DNA of 7,676 nucleotides from an uncultured Erysipelotrichaceae bacterium (GCA_964457525.1 CAYWGS010000067.1:1-7676); one strand, 5' to 3'. Numbered from the stretch's first letter, positions 2,907 through 7,676 are shown. Notes: generated by a model from the letters alone, not told the origin. Numbers and translations are program-made.

Positions 2907-3974
2907 ATGCGATTAGGATTTTCACTTTATTTTAGTACAGGCGTTCAGAAGAATTGTGAGTTGATTGAACGATTCGCAAATGCAGGGTTTACGATTGCGT
3001 TTACCTCTTTGCATATTCCAGAGGAGAGTAATACCAATTACAAGGAAGAGATTCATTTAATCTTTGAAGCGTGTAAGAAACATAATATCGAACTCATGGC
3101 AGATGTTGGTCCACGTACCATTGAGAAATTAGGTCTAAGTTCTTTAGATCAATTAGTGGATACACCATTTCGTCATCTTAGAATGGACTATGGTTTCTCG
3201 TATGAAGAAATGGTTCGTTTATCCAAGAATTTCCATATTATCTTAAATGCTTCTACGATTTCATTTGATGATATCTTTGAACTTAAGAAGTTAAATGCTG
3301 ATTTAACAAAGTTCTCTGCTTGTCATAATTTCTATCCTAAACCATATAGTGCTATTTCTCTTGAAAGAGCCTATAAGATGAATCGTTTCTTAAAAGATAA
3401 TGGAATGCGAGTTCAAATGTTTGTGCCTGGGGATCGTGAAAAACGTGGTCCTCTTCATGAAGGTTTACCAACCATTGAAACGCATCGTTATCAAGATGTT
3501 TTATTATCGGCTTTAGAACTTAAATACTTCTGTGATACCGATGATGTCTTAGTCGGGGATGTGGATGTGAGTGATCCTACTTTGCATCAATTATCCTTAT
3601 TGAGTCAAAATACTGTAGAACTCTATGCCCATTTAGATGAACACTATCACTCATTCTTTGGACAAGTTCATCATGATCGTCCGGATAGTAGTGATTATGT
3701 CATACGTTCTCAAGAATCTCGTTTATATGCGACTCCAGGTCAAATTATTGAACCGAATAATCAAAAAGAGATTTATGCTGGTGATATCTTATTATCAAAT
3801 AAGTATTATCTACGATATTCTGGTGAGTTAGAGATTGCTCGTTGTGATCTTCCGAAGAATGAGAAGATTAATACGATTGGTCGTGTTTGTGATGAATCCA
3901 TTCCGTATCTTAAGTTCATTGATCGAGGGATGGGATTTATATTAAAGGAGAACCATAATGGAAGAAAAAATTAG
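2907..3974 (+). CDS. mupG: DUF871-family protein, MupG-like 6-phospho-N-acetylmuramidase
   Basis: 355 aa. The N-terminus [10 protein letters not shown]... and the size match my memory of DUF871/MupG proteins (M-LGISxY start, about 350 aa). It sits between murP-like and murQ genes, as in the S. aureus mupG-murQ-murP cluster. Strong SD AAAGGAGG. The 3' end overlaps murQ by 17 nt. Confidence 0.7.
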
Positions 3975-4851
3975 TCATTTAACTACTGAAACACGTAATC
4001 CTAAGTCCAGTGAGTTAGATACCTTATCCAGTTTAGAAATCATTCAAATCATGAATGAAGAGGATCATAAAGTTGCCCAAGCTATCCAGAAACAACTTCC
4101 TCAGATTTCTAAAGCCGTTGATCTTATTGTTAAGCAATTAAATCAAGGGGGTCGTGTCATCTATTTCGGTGCAGGTACCAGTGGTCGACTAGGTGTACTT
4201 GATGCATCTGAATGTCCTCCTACCTTCTCAAGTACCGATGAATTTATTGGTATTATTGCAGGTGGAGATAAAGCACTTCGTGTTCCAATTGAAGGGGCTG
4301 AAGATTCTCTTACCTTGTGTGAAGAGGATTTAAAGAAATTAAATTTAACCAGTAAGGATGTGGCGATTGGATTAGCTGCGAGTGGTCGTACACCTTATTG
4401 TATCGGTGGATTAGAATACGCGAAGTCATTAGGTTGTCATACGGTATCGGTCACATGTAATCCAAATTCTAAGATGTCTCAGATTGCGGAGATTGGAATC
4501 GATATTGAAGTAGGCCCTGAAGTGTTAACCGGTTCGACTCGTTTGAAATCAGGTTCTGCTCAGAAGATGGTCTTGAATATGTTATCAACGGCTTCCATGG
4601 TTCGTTATGGTAAGGTCTATGGAAACCTTATGGTTGATGTGAGTCCTACCAATGCGAAGTTGGTTAAGCGTGCGATTAAGATTGTAATGGATGCGACAGG
4701 TTGTGATGAAGAGTTTGCGGAAAAGAAACTTCATGAAGCGAATCTCAAACCTAAATGTGCGATTGTTATGATCATGAAGAATTGTTCATACGATGAAGCA
4801 CTTGTAAGATTAAAAGAAGCGAATAACTTCGTACGTGTTGCGATAAAGTAA
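3958..4851 (+). CDS. murQ: N-acetylmuramic acid 6-phosphate etherase (SIS domain)
   Basis: 297 aa. Hallmark MurQ blocks are [30 protein letters not shown] and [30 protein letters not shown] at 3944-3950, 7 nt before the ATG. Confidence 0.92.
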
Positions 4852-4872
4852 AAAGGGGTTGTCCCCTTTTTT
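4850..4872. terminator. bidirectional intrinsic terminator shared by convergent murQ and the 431-aa gene
   Basis: aaaagggg (4851-4858) / ccccttt t (4863-4870), loop ttgt. T-run on the plus strand (4867-4872) and A-run on the plus strand, which reads as a T-run on the minus strand (4850-4854). It overlaps the murQ stop codon (4849-4851) and the minus-strand stop codon (4872-4874). Confidence 0.8.
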
Positions 4873-6167
4873 CATGCATTATCTCCAACTTCTTCATCAC
4901 TTAATTCAAATAATTTTGTTAACCAGTCGTATGCTAAATTATAATCAATGAATGAATATTCTATTCTATCTACACTTTTATTCTTAAGTCCATCTAGATT
5001 ATTTACATAGGCTTTGTGGATAAACTGACAGGCTCTAGAAAAGCCTTGATGGAATACTTCATAGTAATAGTTTGGACTCATCTTTTTAAAGGATTCACAT
5101 CTTGATCCGAGTTGTTGGGTCAAGTAGTCAAGATCTCGCAGTTCTGACACACTTGGCTCAATCCCTTCATCTCCAAATTGAAGATTGGCTTCATTAAAAT
5201 TTTGGTACAGATTATCTGTAATAACTAAGAATTCTTTATTCCATTCTTCATAAGCTTGAGGATAACGTGTCGTTGATTCAGGATCTTTTCCTAACTCCTC
5301 ATGTACAGTTGTGAAATCGAAGTTTCGTTCTTGTGATGTTTTAAAGAGTACGGTCATATCATTCTCTTTATCGTAATACACACCATCTTTTTCTAGATCG
5401 ACCACATCTATCAGAAATAGATTATATAAACGTGTTTGTGCAAACACTTCATCCACATCGATGAAATCGATATTAAGTTCTTTGGTATACGCATAGGTAT
5501 CGTAGTCTCTTGTCATATTATCCACAATGCTTCGAGTAACATAGCCAACTAGAAATCGATCTCTTTTTACATAAACCTCGATATTTATGATGAATTGTTG
5601 ATCGATTGGATTAATATCAATATTTCCTAAGCTTAGTTCAAATTCTTTAAGATGTTTTGTAAGTCTGTCTTGCATCTCTTCACTGGTAATCGTCTCAAGT
5701 GTTTCATAACCTTGTTCGATTTCAAAGTTATAGGCATCTGGCTTTATTCGATGTTCATTCAGTAGATTACTTAAAAACGTTCTACCAAAGAAAAATAGGA
5801 ATACGACTAAAATTCCAATGAGTTGCTCAATTGTATCTAGCTTTTTGTTTTTAATAATTCTTCGATCATAGACTTTATATAATTCTATGAGTACATAAAA
5901 CATGACCGGCAGTCCTAATACACCGATTGCTAGGTATAAATTGTTGTTCGTCATTGAACCATATGTAATTAAACCAATGGATACTAAAAGTATGATTGAA
6001 TAAATCATTATTTTCTTAGTTTTTTTAGGATTAACTTGCGTTGTATCCTCTAGTTTATTCTCTAATTCAATTATGATTGGTTCTTCTTGTTTTTCCCCAC
6101 AAAATAAACAATACTTCTCATCTTCTTGTAATATCTCATTACAATGTTTACATCTTTTCTCGCTCAT
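4872..6167 (-). CDS. uncharacterised membrane protein: N-terminal C4 zinc ribbon, 3 predicted TM helices, 286-aa acidic extracytoplasmic domain (paralog B)
   Basis: 431 aa. KRCKHC-x10-CLFCG (Cys6/9/20/23). Hydrophobic helices at aa ~53-70, 77-97 and 113-135, with basic patches KKTKK and DRRIIKNKK on the predicted cytoplasmic side. Residues 146-431 are homologous to the neighbouring ORF. SD GAGGTGG is 3 nt from the ATG. A long ORF with no competing frame. Confidence 0.85.
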   Translation of the reverse strand: MSEKRCKHCNEILQEDEKYCLFCGEKQEEPIIIELENKLEDTTQVNPKKTKKIMIYSIILLVSIGLITYGSMTNNNLYLAIGVLGLPVMFYVLIELYKVYDRRIIKNKKLDTIEQLIGILVVFLFFFGRTFLSNLLNEHRIKPDAYNFEIEQGYETLETITSEEMQDRLTKHLKEFELSLGNIDINPIDQQFIINIEVYVKRDRFLVGYVTRSIVDNMTRDYDTYAYTKELNIDFIDVDEVFAQTRLYNLFLIDVVDLEKDGVYYDKENDMTVLFKTSQERNFDFTTVHEELGKDPESTTRYPQAYEEWNKEFLVITDNLYQNFNEANLQFGDEGIEPSVSELRDLDYLTQQLGSRCESFKKMSPNYYYEVFHQGFSRACQFIHKAYVNNLDGLKNKSVDRIEYSFIDYNLAYDWLTKLFELSDEEVGDNA

Positions 6168-6172
6168 GTCCC

Positions 6173-6198
6173 ACCTCAGTCTTGTCTATTATATCAAA
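6173..6198 (-). promoter_or_regulatory. conserved 26-nt core promoter/leader (extended -10 TGATATAAT plus SD GAGGT), copy 1
   Basis: The minus strand reads TTTGATATAATAGACAAGACTGAGGT. It is identical to 7386-7411. TATAAT = complement of 6188-6193, TG = complement of 6195-6196, SD = complement of 6173-6177. No convincing -35 hexamer. Confidence 0.5.
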
Positions 6199-6235
6199 GG
6201 TGTTTTAACACTTATACAATAATTTGTACACATAG

Positions 6236-6258
6236 AAAAAAAGGATAATTATCCTTTT
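6236..6258 (-). terminator. weak AT-rich hairpin plus T-run after the 372-aa gene
   Basis: The minus strand after stop TAA (6261-6263) reads AAAAGGAT-AATT-ATCCTTTT, followed by further T residues. Only two G-C pairs, so this is at best a leaky terminator. Confidence 0.3.
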
Positions 6259-6260
6259 AA

Positions 6261-7379
6261 TTATGCAGAATCTCCCACAACTTCTTCATCATCTGTATAG
6301 AGATCATAGAAGTAATCACGTCCTAAATTGTAGTCTAAGAAGGAGTATCGAATACGATCAACACTTCGGTTTTTGAGTCCATCGATATTGATTACGTAGG
6401 ACTTGTGGATAAATGCACATCCTCTTTTTAAGTCTTGATGAAATACTTCAAAATAATAATTAGAGTTAAATTCATCAATAGTTTTACAATAATTTCCGTA
6501 TTCTTCAGTTAATGCACTAAGTTCTCGTATTTCTGTTACAGTTGGTTCTATTCCTTCATCGATATAATGCATGTTCACTAAGTCAAAGGCATCATCAATT
6601 TCGGTTGAGAAGGGTGCGAACTGATTATACCAACGTTCATATGCGGATATAAATTCTTCAGTCGATTCAGGATTATCGATCCAATCTTCGCGTTCAGTTG
6701 GGAACTCGAAGTTTGTATCTTGTGATGTCTTAAAGCGAATATTGAGGTTGCTTCTTTCATCATAGAATTCGCCATCCTTATTCAAACTAATCACATCGAC
6801 TAAGAATAGATTGTATAAGCGTGTGCTATAGAGATACGTTCCTTCATTGTAGAAATGAGCATTTAAATCTTTTACATAGGCGTAGGTATCGTAATCTCTT
6901 GAGATACTTCCCACGATGGATTTAAATAGTTTACCTGCTTCAAATCGATCACCAATCTTATTGATATCAAAGTTTACATAAAATTGATCATCTTCTTCTG
7001 TCACGGTTATGTAGTCATAGTCTTCGGTATACCTTGAAACATGTGTTTCAATACGACTTTGCATCTCTTCTTCGCTTATGACTTCTATCGCTTCATAGCC
7101 TGGTTCTATCTCATATACATAGGATTCTTCAACTGGAGGATTACTTTCAATGGATTCTCTTATATAGGGTGTCATATCTGACATATTCCATAATTGGAGA
7201 ACGACAAATGTTGTAAAGATTGTAATTCCAATAAATATCAAGAATGCTTTTAAGAGAGGATTATTGGTTTTTTTAGATTTCGTTTGTGGTGCTACAGTTT
7301 GATCTGCTCCACAGTTCATGCAAAAATGATCTCCTTCGTCGATATAAGCATGGCATGTATGGCATCTTTTTTGAATCAT
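6261..7379 (-). CDS. uncharacterised membrane protein: N-terminal C4 zinc ribbon, single TM helix, 286-aa acidic extracytoplasmic domain (paralog A)
   Basis: 372 aa. KRCHTC-x10-CMNCG (Cys6/9/20/23). TKSKKT basic patch, then the helix LLKAFLIFIGITIFTTFVVLQLW (aa 42-64). Residues 87-372 align without net gaps to aa 146-431 of the downstream ORF. Confidence 0.85.
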   Translation of the reverse strand: MIQKRCHTCHAYIDEGDHFCMNCGADQTVAPQTKSKKTNNPLLKAFLIFIGITIFTTFVVLQLWNMSDMTPYIRESIESNPPVEESYVYEIEPGYEAIEVISEEEMQSRIETHVSRYTEDYDYITVTEEDDQFYVNFDINKIGDRFEAGKLFKSIVGSISRDYDTYAYVKDLNAHFYNEGTYLYSTRLYNLFLVDVISLNKDGEFYDERSNLNIRFKTSQDTNFEFPTEREDWIDNPESTEEFISAYERWYNQFAPFSTEIDDAFDLVNMHYIDEGIEPTVTEIRELSALTEEYGNYCKTIDEFNSNYYFEVFHQDLKRGCAFIHKSYVINIDGLKNRSVDRIRYSFLDYNLGRDYFYDLYTDDEEVVGDSA

Positions 7380-7385
7380 TTTGTT

Positions 7386-7411
7386 ACCTCAGTCTTGTCT
7401 ATTATATCAAA
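7386..7411 (-). promoter_or_regulatory. conserved 26-nt core promoter/leader (extended -10 TGATATAAT plus SD GAGGT), copy 2
   Basis: Identical 26-mer to 6173-6198, located 6 nt upstream of the start codon (7377-7379). TATAAT = complement of 7401-7406. Confidence 0.5.
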
Positions 7412-7413
7412 TT

Positions 7414-7436
7414 AAAAAGTAATCATGATTGATTAC
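7414..7436 (-). terminator. small hairpin plus T5 directly after the HxlR-family stop codon (weak terminator and/or operator)
   Basis: GTAATC (7419-7424) / GATTAC (7431-7436) forms a 6-bp stem with a 6-nt loop. On the minus strand it is followed by TTTTT (complement of 7414-7418). It contains the perfect 10-bp palindrome AATCATGATT (7421-7430), which overlaps the position where a -35 box for the downstream promoter would lie. Confidence 0.3.
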
Positions 7437-7676
7437 TTAAGAACTTGTTTTATTGAGATCTAACTTATAGTAATGTGTTCCAAATCGTCTCATTTCATCT
7501 AGGACTGGACCTAATGATAAGCCTAACTCAGTTAAGGTATATTCCACCTTAGGTGGCACAACCGGATAGACTTTACGTTCAATGAGTCCATCTTCCTCTA
7601 ATCCTCTTAAACTCTGCGTCAACATCTTCTGGGTTACCCCTGGCATCACTCGTTTCATTTCACTGAATCGTTTTGT
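7437..7676 (-). CDS. HxlR-family winged-helix transcriptional regulator (5' end truncated by window edge)
   Basis: The reading frame is open to the window end: TKRFSEMKRVMPGVTQKMLTQSLRGLEEDGLIERKVYPVVPPKVEYTLTELG. This is the typical HxlR/MarR-like wHTH signature (PGIxQKMLTxxLRxLEEDGLIxRxVYPxVPPKVEYxLTxxG). The ATG at 7658 in the ORF track is internal. Confidence 0.85.
   Translation of the reverse strand, partial: TKRFSEMKRVMPGVTQKMLTQSLRGLEEDGLIERKVYPVVPPKVEYTLTELGLSLGPVLDEMRRFGTHYYKLDLNKTSS

Follow-up and report, generated by a model that had tools for sequence, protein, structure and literature searches.

The two genes and their proteins

The DNA analysed here, called the window, is a stretch of 7,676 nucleotides from an uncultured Erysipelotrichaceae bacterium (GCA_964457525.1, CAYWGS010000067.1:1-7676). 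Its minus strand carries two tandem genes, B (6261-7379) and A (4872-6167), with the coordinates and strand given in a first-pass annotation of the same DNA. The B protein has 372 aa and is composed of a zinc ribbon, one predicted transmembrane (TM) segment and an ectodomain of 286 aa. The A protein (431 aa) has a zinc ribbon, three predicted TM segments and an ectodomain of the same length. The ectodomains belong to a new orphan family carried on a known type of anchor, and the genes occupy a fixed polymorphic cassette site which holds one or two copies from about eight deep lineages.

The site is bounded upstream by hxlR, of which the 3' part is present before the window ends (7437-7676, minus strand; PF01638, E = 2.9e-23), and downstream by murQ (3958-4851, plus strand), the last gene of an EIIA-licT-EIIBC-mupG-murQ operon. 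In the following, L001 to L015 denote related loci from metagenome contigs and P-numbers denote related proteins.

Both proteins begin with the motif M-x-x-KRC-x2-C-x10-C-x2-CG, which places cysteines at positions 6, 9, 20 and 23 in each. From Y146 in A and Y87 in B to the C-terminus they align over 286 aa without a gap, as had been noted before; the identity, earlier estimated by eye at roughly half, was slightly lower at 131/286 (45.8%). A BLASTP alignment of the full-length proteins (35% identity, E = 3e-93) contained the sequence blocks previously listed as shared, and all of its 59 gap positions fell within the membrane region. Both ectodomains are acidic, the ratio of D+E to K+R being 57/27 in A and 62/25 in B. 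Orthologues of A were 99% identical in L001 and L004, those of B 98% identical in L001, L004 and L011. A further protein, P0011 (283 aa, ENA), was 99% identical to part of the A ectodomain over its N-terminal 133 aa, the remainder being annotated as SusD-like (PF07980); it is probably a chimeric metagenome assembly.

Promoters and terminators

An identical 25-nt element, TTGATATAATAGACAAGACTGAGGT, lies directly 5' of both start codons on the minus strand, at 7386-7410 for B and at 6173-6197 for A (0 such elements expected by chance). Within the 25-mer an extended -10 reads TGaTATAAT (TGATATAAT, at 7401-7409 in the B promoter/leader and at 6188-6196 in that of A), and it is followed by the ribosome-binding site GAGGT at 7386-7390 and 6173-6177, respectively. 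This promoter/leader was kept before the first family gene at every related locus, with 0-2 mismatches in 13 of the 14 upstream regions having it.

The generic sigma-70 promoter and terminator scan reported nothing in the intergenic gaps, because the promoters are without a -35 element and the hairpins are AT-rich. Direct reading and folding were used in its place. They placed a hairpin with a T-run after hxlR, directly upstream of the B promoter (7417-7438, minus strand), which is formed by an inverted repeat of -7.7 kcal/mol (z = -2.8). A second, AT-rich hairpin with a T-run follows the B stop codon (6239-6258, minus strand). It is a perfect 10/10 palindrome of -6.3 kcal/mol (z = -1.9) and resembles a weak terminator. 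The third hairpin (4850-4871, both strands) is a bidirectional terminator common to A and the convergent murQ, with a perfect stem of 9 bp that includes 4 G-C pairs; it scored -11.6 kcal/mol (z = -4.3) on the minus strand and -11.9 kcal/mol (z = -3.2) on the plus strand. An Rfam search of the window gave no match at E values up to 1.

The first-pass annotation had credited each copy with its own promoter and downstream hairpin, and at the sequence level this was borne out by the shared 25-mer and the hairpins after both genes. It is plausible that A and B are transcribed independently, and some read-through from B into A may occur.

In the whole window there were three TGNTATAAT sites, two of which are the promoters of A and B. 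The third, TGGTATAAT (6624-6653, minus strand), was flagged by the promoter scan inside the coding region of B, upstream of the B terminator hairpin, and is associated with a -35-like hexamer TTTATA at a spacing of 18 nt.

The membrane anchor

The C4 zinc ribbon occupies aa 1-26 in both proteins (Cys6/9/20/23), corresponding to 7302-7379 in B and 6090-6167 in A on the minus strand. Only B (26.4 bits) passed the gathering score of 25 bits for Zn_Ribbon_1 (PF13240); A remained below it at 17.1 bits with the same spacing of the cysteines. The four cysteines were kept in at least 90% of the family members, and zinc binding is predicted.

A single TM helix is predicted in B from hydropathy and flanking charge (aa 39-66; 7182-7265, minus strand) and appears as a helix at 41-68 in the AlphaFold model. 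The charge is +3/-0 before and +1/-5 after it. A has three hydrophobic segments (about aa 50-74, 76-100 and 109-137), so that its membrane region (aa 50-137; 5757-6020, minus strand) consists of a putative TM hairpin, a basic loop (+4/-1) and a third TM segment. This arrangement was present in every lineage except B, which represents a derived form with a single TM.

Each of the 11 lineages examined had a basic segment ahead of the first TM and a basic loop ahead of the last one, and the 20 residues past the last TM were acidic. The N-in/C-out topology proposed earlier for A and B fits this distribution of charge. Because a cytoplasmic-type zinc ribbon, an extracytoplasmic cysteine pair and the charge pattern occur together, inference supports a topology in which the ribbon would lie inside the cell and the ectodomain outside.

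The same module of zinc ribbon, TM hairpin, basic loop and TM was found fused to unrelated small C-terminal domains, for example KTSC; another such fusion gave a weaker, sub-threshold match of the Big_2 type. Since the module is joined to unrelated domains, it can be regarded as a generic anchor and the ectodomain as the functional end of the protein.

The ectodomain

The ectodomain of A comprises aa 146-431 (4875-5732, minus strand) and that of B aa 87-372 (6264-7121, minus strand). In the family its length is 275-287 aa, and every lineage showed a net charge of -14 to -55, 14-20% aromatic residues and a pair of cysteines. There are exactly two cysteines per ectodomain, C357 and C380 in A and C298 and C321 in B; the pair was invariant in an alignment of 12 lineages and at least 90% conserved when fragments were included.

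AlphaFold2 predicted the folded core of the B ectodomain, modelled in the full-length protein, with block values of the predicted local distance difference test (pLDDT) mostly between 83 and 93. The ectodomain of A, modelled alone, reached a pLDDT of 85 and a predicted template-modelling score (pTM) of 0.82. The two models have one architecture in common, in which an alpha-beta-beta-alpha-beta-beta module, extended by a small additional hairpin, precedes a four-helix bundle and packs against it. The alpha/beta module is predicted at about aa 162-274 of A (5346-5684) and about aa 103-219 of B (6723-7073), the bundle at aa 296-421 of A (4905-5282) and aa 237-359 of B (6303-6671). In the models the conserved cysteines sit on bundle helices 2 and 3.

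That the ectodomain is unassigned, as first supposed, held against both profile and structural searches, neither of which gave a match to a characterised domain. Pfam scans of A, B and 12 ectodomains at E values up to 1 returned zinc-ribbon families and single-member noise only, and no Pfam family was matched by more than one of the 12 members. NCBIfam gave no meaningful match. The best PADLOC match was BrxB (E = 0.0056), with no single stretch passing alone, and the PHROGs matches (E = 0.004 or worse) covered only the zinc ribbon. Profile searches of PDB sequences, with the full length and with the ectodomain alone, yielded zinc ribbons or nothing. Foldseek searches of PDB with both models gave no match at E ≤1e-3 (best E = 0.03), and a search of BFVD with one model gave a best E of 3.8e-3, above the 1e-3 line, the matches being small helical phage lipoproteins superposed with a high root-mean-square deviation (rmsd). 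A literature search on characterised zinc-ribbon single-pass proteins found nothing directly relevant. The combination of domains in the predicted fold was not found in the PDB.

Several local likenesses recurred in the Foldseek searches below significance, namely CamS-type domains (E = 0.03), the ferredoxin-like CDF domains of MamM and CzcD, and generic four-helix bundles (the GH84 C-terminal bundle, cytochrome c' and the PcaY_PP sensor domain). The alpha/beta module superposes locally on CamS-type lipoproteins (3n2q, 2qx2, 4hn3) over 90-97 columns with an rmsd of 3.9-5.6 Å, and on the C-terminal domains of the CDF transporters MamM and CzcD over 79-88 residues with an rmsd of 2.2-3.6 Å and a TM-score of 0.71-0.76 relative to the target. 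However, these matches had E values of 0.03-0.2 and sequence identities of 7-17%, and the fold concerned is a generic two-layer alpha/beta fold. Unlike CamS, the family has a zinc ribbon and TM at the N-terminus, no lipobox and no Pfam CamS match; unlike the CDF domains, its module has no identified metal-site residues.

Across the deepest splits of the family only E, Y, N, D, W, C, C and G were invariant. With so few invariant residues no set of catalytic residues stands out; they do not include a nucleophile/His set, and H314 is not conserved in P0024 or P0160. Nor was there any indication of a membrane anti-sigma factor of the ZAS or RsgI type, the motif being a C4 ribbon and not H-x3-C-x2-C, with no anti-sigma match in Pfam and none of the annotated neighbours in L001, L010 and L011 being a sigma-factor gene.

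A polymorphic cassette site in one clade

Eleven relatives came out of a word-indexed search of 5.8 billion proteins, and an exhaustive hidden Markov model (HMM) search of 1.84 billion representatives gave about 16 clusters covering the ectodomain, all other matches being to the zinc ribbon or TM only. No further relatives were obtained with an ectodomain-only profile at E values up to 1. Homologues that share the conserved blocks do exist, and the family is confined to one narrow uncultured Erysipelotrichaceae clade. Neighbouring proteins are labelled as belonging to an 'Erysipelotrichaceae bacterium' metagenome-assembled genome, and the related contigs come from metagenomes. Several of these contigs carry the study label MUNK22-1, which from the label alone we take to be a sewage survey.

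In the window and at 11 related loci the family gene or genes lay at one and the same site, with an oxidoreductase gene and a divergent hxlR upstream and the convergent murQ operon downstream. MurQ was 88-100% identical among the related loci. The window, L001, L004 and L011 have two copies, B then A; L006 and L007 have two copies from other lineages; L002, L003, L005, L008 and L010 have one copy, as does L009, where it is followed by NA37 and RelA_SpoT genes.

A neighbour-joining tree of the ectodomains resolved about eight deep lineages with 17-61% identity between them. A was the sister of P0016 (55% identity), and B was equally close, at 46% identity, to A and to the common single-copy type, here called type I. 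The paralogues had been described as duplicated. They are indeed two tandem divergent copies, but not the outcome of a recent local duplication. That description is too simple because B is as close to the single-copy type as to A and because other genomes have one copy or differently built arrays.

The junction of A with its leader, GAGGTGGGA(C/T)-ATG-AG(C/T)-GAG-AAA, is common to type I; it is exact in the first genes of L006 and L007 (L006_1 and L007_1) and has ATGAAT in L002, L005 and L010. A is therefore regarded as the positional orthologue and B as a gene added upstream together with a second copy of the promoter. The second gene of L006 and of L007 lacks a promoter, starting 17 nt after the stop codon of the first gene and forming an operon with it. 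The duplicated promoter in the window and the promoter-less second gene in L006 and L007 show that two-copy arrays arose at least twice, by different routes.

The divergence of the family genes is not matched by that of their flanks. Between the window and L002/L003 identity was 88-93% for MurQ, 92-94% for EIIBC, 89% for LicT and 76-83% for MupG, and 68% for EIIA (to L003), versus 32-39% for the family proteins. At the nucleotide level, comparison with L005/L007 gave about 82% identity in the flanking genes, 87-89% over the promoter and zinc-ribbon 5' end of A (6082-6199), no detectable identity in the central 1 kb or so, and 66-70% in the last 200 nt or so. The synonymous divergence (dS) of the family gene exceeded that of murQ in five of six genome pairs (1.5-2.8 times) and was lower in the sixth, so that the history of the family gene is incongruent with that of its flanks.

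Selection and loss of the ectodomain

A comparison of A with B gave a nonsynonymous divergence (dN) of 0.47, a saturated dS (about 2.3) and a dN/dS ratio (omega) of about 0.2. Against close orthologues omega was 0.11-0.33 for A and 0.12-0.18 for B, and among type-I orthologues and within lineages it was 0.08-0.36. These values are far below the ratio near 1 that would mark decay. There is purifying selection within lineages, and neither copy in the window is decaying.

Conservation between lineages varies along the protein. The mean pairwise identity was highest in the juxtamembrane YxYEIEPGYE segment (49%), followed by the zinc ribbon (45%) and bundle helices 3 and 4 (44% and 40%); it was 31% in the alpha/beta module and 25% and 27% in bundle helices 1 and 2. 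Neither a diversity-generating retroelement nor hypermutation was accepted as an explanation, as dS within one allele class (the window versus L001 and L004) was like that of the flanks and the divergence spans the whole protein.

In three independent metagenome samples (L011, 5060-5149; L014, 563-652; L015, 267-356) codon 146 of A (5730-5732) was changed from TAT to TAG, together with a linked silent change from AAG to AAA. The stop truncates A exactly at the boundary between TM and ectodomain. B was intact in L011, the sole contig of the three long enough to show it. Loss of the A ectodomain is tolerated, and an allele without it is in circulation. In another family allele (L013, 1366-2679) the linker that joins the alpha/beta module to the helical bundle contains two in-frame stops beside an A18 homopolymer; a pseudogene, slipped-strand phase variation or an error of assembly could each explain this.

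Neighbouring genes

hxlR was the conserved upstream neighbour in L001 and in L004 to L011. In L003 a methyltransferase gene and a YdjM-like gene lie between hxlR and the family gene, and in L002 the place of hxlR is taken by a transposase-like open reading frame (ORF) with an rve integrase core (435-1130), which scored below the Pfam gathering score and adjoins the 5' side of the family-gene promoter. The two genes directly 3' of the family gene in L009 (1816-3836) are of the NA37 nucleoid-associated type (PF04245, 2.6e-11) and of the RelA_SpoT-domain type, the latter matching the PADLOC candidate PDC-S33 (1.5e-18). This candidate suggests that the cassette site accepts defence-type inserts. 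In L010 a gene with an AbiEii domain and an unannotated partner (6121-7570) lie about 2.4 kb upstream of the family gene, beside a two-component system, and are further evidence of a variable neighbourhood.

hxlR is paired divergently with a gene for a 186-aa protein whose sole Pfam annotation is a faint F420_oxidored match (7215-8247 in L003, 8898-9919 in L010 and 2379-3401 in L011). This oxidoreductase-type gene is more likely to be the target of HxlR than the family genes are. A role for HxlR as regulator of the family was set aside, given the separate hairpin after hxlR, its divergent pairing with the oxidoreductase gene, the extra genes between hxlR and the family gene in L003 and its absence from L002.

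Linkage of the family to murQ and hxlR, which the first-pass annotation had named as a point to survey, amounts to positional synteny inside a single narrow clade. We considered a functional connection with murQ and set it aside: close relatives share this gene order, the two genes converge, and the association is interrupted in L009. A LicT-type regulator belongs to the murQ operon itself. In L001 the same proteins carry the Pfam labels SIS, MupG and PTS (phosphotransferase system).

Two further observations concern this operon. The stop codon of mupG and the start of murQ overlap by 17 nt (3958-3974), as they do in L001, which suggests translational coupling. Between licT (496-1323) and the gene for PTS EIIBC, a canonical TTGACA-17-TATAAT promoter on the plus strand is followed by a hairpin (AGCCGGAAAC...TTTTCGGCT) and a T-run (1327-1415), ahead of an ATG at 1439. 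The element looks like an antitermination leader of the LicT/BglG type, with no Rfam match there, and the probable start of EIIBC is 1439, giving 472 aa as in the annotation of L001, and not the 1337 of a mechanical ORF list.

Possible function of the family

Sequence features support the earlier view of the family as membrane-anchored surface or sensor proteins. Among more specific explanations we tentatively favour one to which we give somewhat less than an even chance: that these are non-enzymatic surface binding proteins of N-in/C-out topology, in which a new ectodomain has been placed on a known anchor and is under frequency-dependent selection. The zinc ribbon would lie in the cytoplasm, and the ectodomain, displayed outside the cell, would work as a binding surface and not as an enzyme. 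Its conserved scaffold would be provided by the juxtamembrane EIEPGYE segment together with bundle helices 3-4 and the cysteine pair, and its fast-changing faces by the alpha/beta module and bundle helices 1-2. Something outside the cell would bind the ectodomain, the most plausible candidates being a phage or some other extracellular antagonist or partner, and would impose negative frequency-dependent selection and so keep old allele classes alive. Recombination via the conserved flanks, the promoter with the zinc-ribbon 5' end and the 3' end may then swap or stack cassettes. Two cassettes, as in the window, might broaden or hedge specificity, A and B each being transcribed from its own copy of the -35-less extended -10 promoter.

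Allelic mosaic loci with conserved flanks and a hypervariable centre are known from the staphylococcal agr specificity region and the variable region of Enterococcus PIP_EF. In general terms these loci resemble the present one: the site is fixed, its allele classes are deeply split, its ends and flanks are conserved, and selection inside each class is purifying. Their proteins and mechanisms are unrelated to those of the family described here.

A number of points weigh against a surface binding protein of this kind. The selective agent is pure inference, and IMG/VR viral contigs contained no relatives, a result that is in itself neutral as to whether phages use the proteins as receptors. Omega over the whole gene lies well below 1, and lateral replacement could also produce deep allelic divergence in the absence of balancing selection. 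Nor would purely passive display explain what the cytoplasmic zinc ribbon does. Finally, the topology is based on hydropathy, charge bias and zinc/disulfide logic, and the alignments supplied to AlphaFold were shallow (10-13 sequences).

First among the rival explanations, although unlikely, is an envelope-assembly or scaffold factor like TcaA, the ectodomain of which would organise or retain wall polymers or wall enzymes; the position next to an operon for the recycling of N-acetylmuramic acid (MurNAc) would then reflect a role in the wall. TcaA of Staphylococcus aureus has an intracellular zinc finger and a membrane span, is mostly extracellular and has been implicated in the ligation or retention of wall teichoic acid (PMC10328498). 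The overall layout of A and B is the same, and the earlier comparison with TcaA stands as far as the order of zinc ribbon, TM and ectodomain is concerned; homology of the ectodomains was not detected. A part in glycopeptide sensitivity would also be expected of a true member of the TcaA family. Like TcaA and the PF13240-anchored class of Bacillota proteins in general, in which a small intracellular C4 ribbon and a membrane span carry many unrelated ectodomains, A and B would have most of the protein outside. However, TcaA has one TM and most members of the present family have three, and the family is restricted to a narrow clade, highly polymorphic at a fixed locus and without ectodomain homology to any Pfam family. 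The tail-to-tail arrangement with murQ agrees with a role in the wall, as does an acidic, aromatic-rich ectodomain that could bind cationic or glycan wall components, and the alpha/beta module is weakly like the CamS-type extracellular lipoprotein domains of Bacillota (E = 0.03). Against this, Pfam matches at E values up to 1 were, apart from single-member noise, zinc ribbons only, the association with murQ reflects gene order shared by close relatives and breaks down in L009, and a truncated allele circulates. Housekeeping envelope factors are normally conserved, but here a single narrow clade shows 17-61% identity between lineages, compared with mostly 76-94% in the flanks.

The second rival, which we consider improbable, is a transmembrane sensor in which the bundle would bind a small ligand, a signal would cross the membrane, and the zinc ribbon would engage a conserved cytoplasmic partner or, after proteolysis, be released to it; in one version muropeptides would be sensed for the murQ operon. 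A conserved inside and a variable outside are typical of receptors, and the zinc ribbon and juxtamembrane segment are the best-conserved parts of these proteins, the 5' end of the ribbon being conserved at the level of the flanks. The bundle also has a weak local match to the chemoreceptor four-helix bundle (4HB) domain of PcaY_PP (6s1a; probability 0.96 but E = 0.24). The likeness to such sensor domains (PcaY_PP, PDB 6s1a) lies in the C-terminal half of the family, a predicted up-down bundle of about 125 aa outside the membrane. In contrast to 4HB sensors, this bundle is C-terminal and does not return to the membrane by a second TM, is not coupled to a HAMP, MA or kinase module, is fused to an alpha/beta module and has a cysteine pair; the structural matches had E ≥0.24, and there was no Pfam match to 4HB_MCP or a sensor family. 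The proteins lack an output domain, their genes have no constant neighbour coding for a sigma factor, kinase or regulator, and a ribbon of 25 aa is a weak basis for signalling. hxlR pairs with the divergent oxidoreductase gene, and the murQ operon is under its own LicT/EIIA control.

Slightly less probable again is a membrane-anchored anti-phage or superinfection-exclusion protein that would block adsorption or DNA entry and would have diversified in an arms race. It would account for a hypervariable locus of varying copy number in a region that takes defence-type inserts (the PDC-S33 candidate in L009 and AbiEii in L010), and the marginal Foldseek matches to small helical phage lipoproteins (BFVD, best E = 3.8e-3) point the same way. 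Those matches, however, lie above the 1e-3 significance line and have a high rmsd; no PADLOC or PHROG family was matched, no member was found on viral contigs (IMG/VR), and the genes lie outside any prophage, at a fixed chromosomal position and behind a conserved promoter.

That one or both copies are decaying duplicates without function is very improbable: the nonsense mutation of A in three samples, the two in-frame stops beside the A18 tract of L013 and the absence from B of the TM hairpin found in all other lineages could be cited for it, but neither copy in the window is interrupted, omega stays at 0.11-0.33 when they are compared with close orthologues and at about 0.2 when A is compared with B, ectodomain length, cysteine pair, acidity and promoter are all conserved, and AlphaFold folds both copies confidently.

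The surface binding protein that we favour can also be drawn in a more ambitious form, as a balanced-polymorphism 'surface identity' locus. The new ectodomain, an alpha/beta module with a disulfide-braced four-helix bundle, would be a receptor for strain recognition or for the adsorption of phages of this uncultured Erysipelotrichaceae clade, the zinc ribbon would report its occupancy to a conserved intracellular partner, and alleles would be shuffled via the promoter/zinc-ribbon and 3' ends. We regard this form as unlikely. If true, it would describe a new class of single-chain transmembrane receptor.

Membrane proteins anchored in this way by a zinc ribbon abound in Bacillota, and to our knowledge a mechanism has been worked out for almost none of them. 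The behaviour of the present fixed site as an allelic cassette locus is unusual. The present family is an unusually clean natural experiment, with a fixed locus, a conserved promoter and cytoplasmic handle, about eight deeply divergent ectodomain alleles, independent stacking of two alleles and an allele that has lost the ectodomain. Should the proteins be only lineage-specific components of the envelope, what is gained is a new domain family that merits a Pfam entry but not much else. If the ectodomain is a receptor for a phage or a partner, the locus would be a marker for strain typing and for phage-host matching in uncultured gut or sewage Erysipelotrichaceae, and it would offer a first functional handle on the cytoplasmic zinc ribbon.

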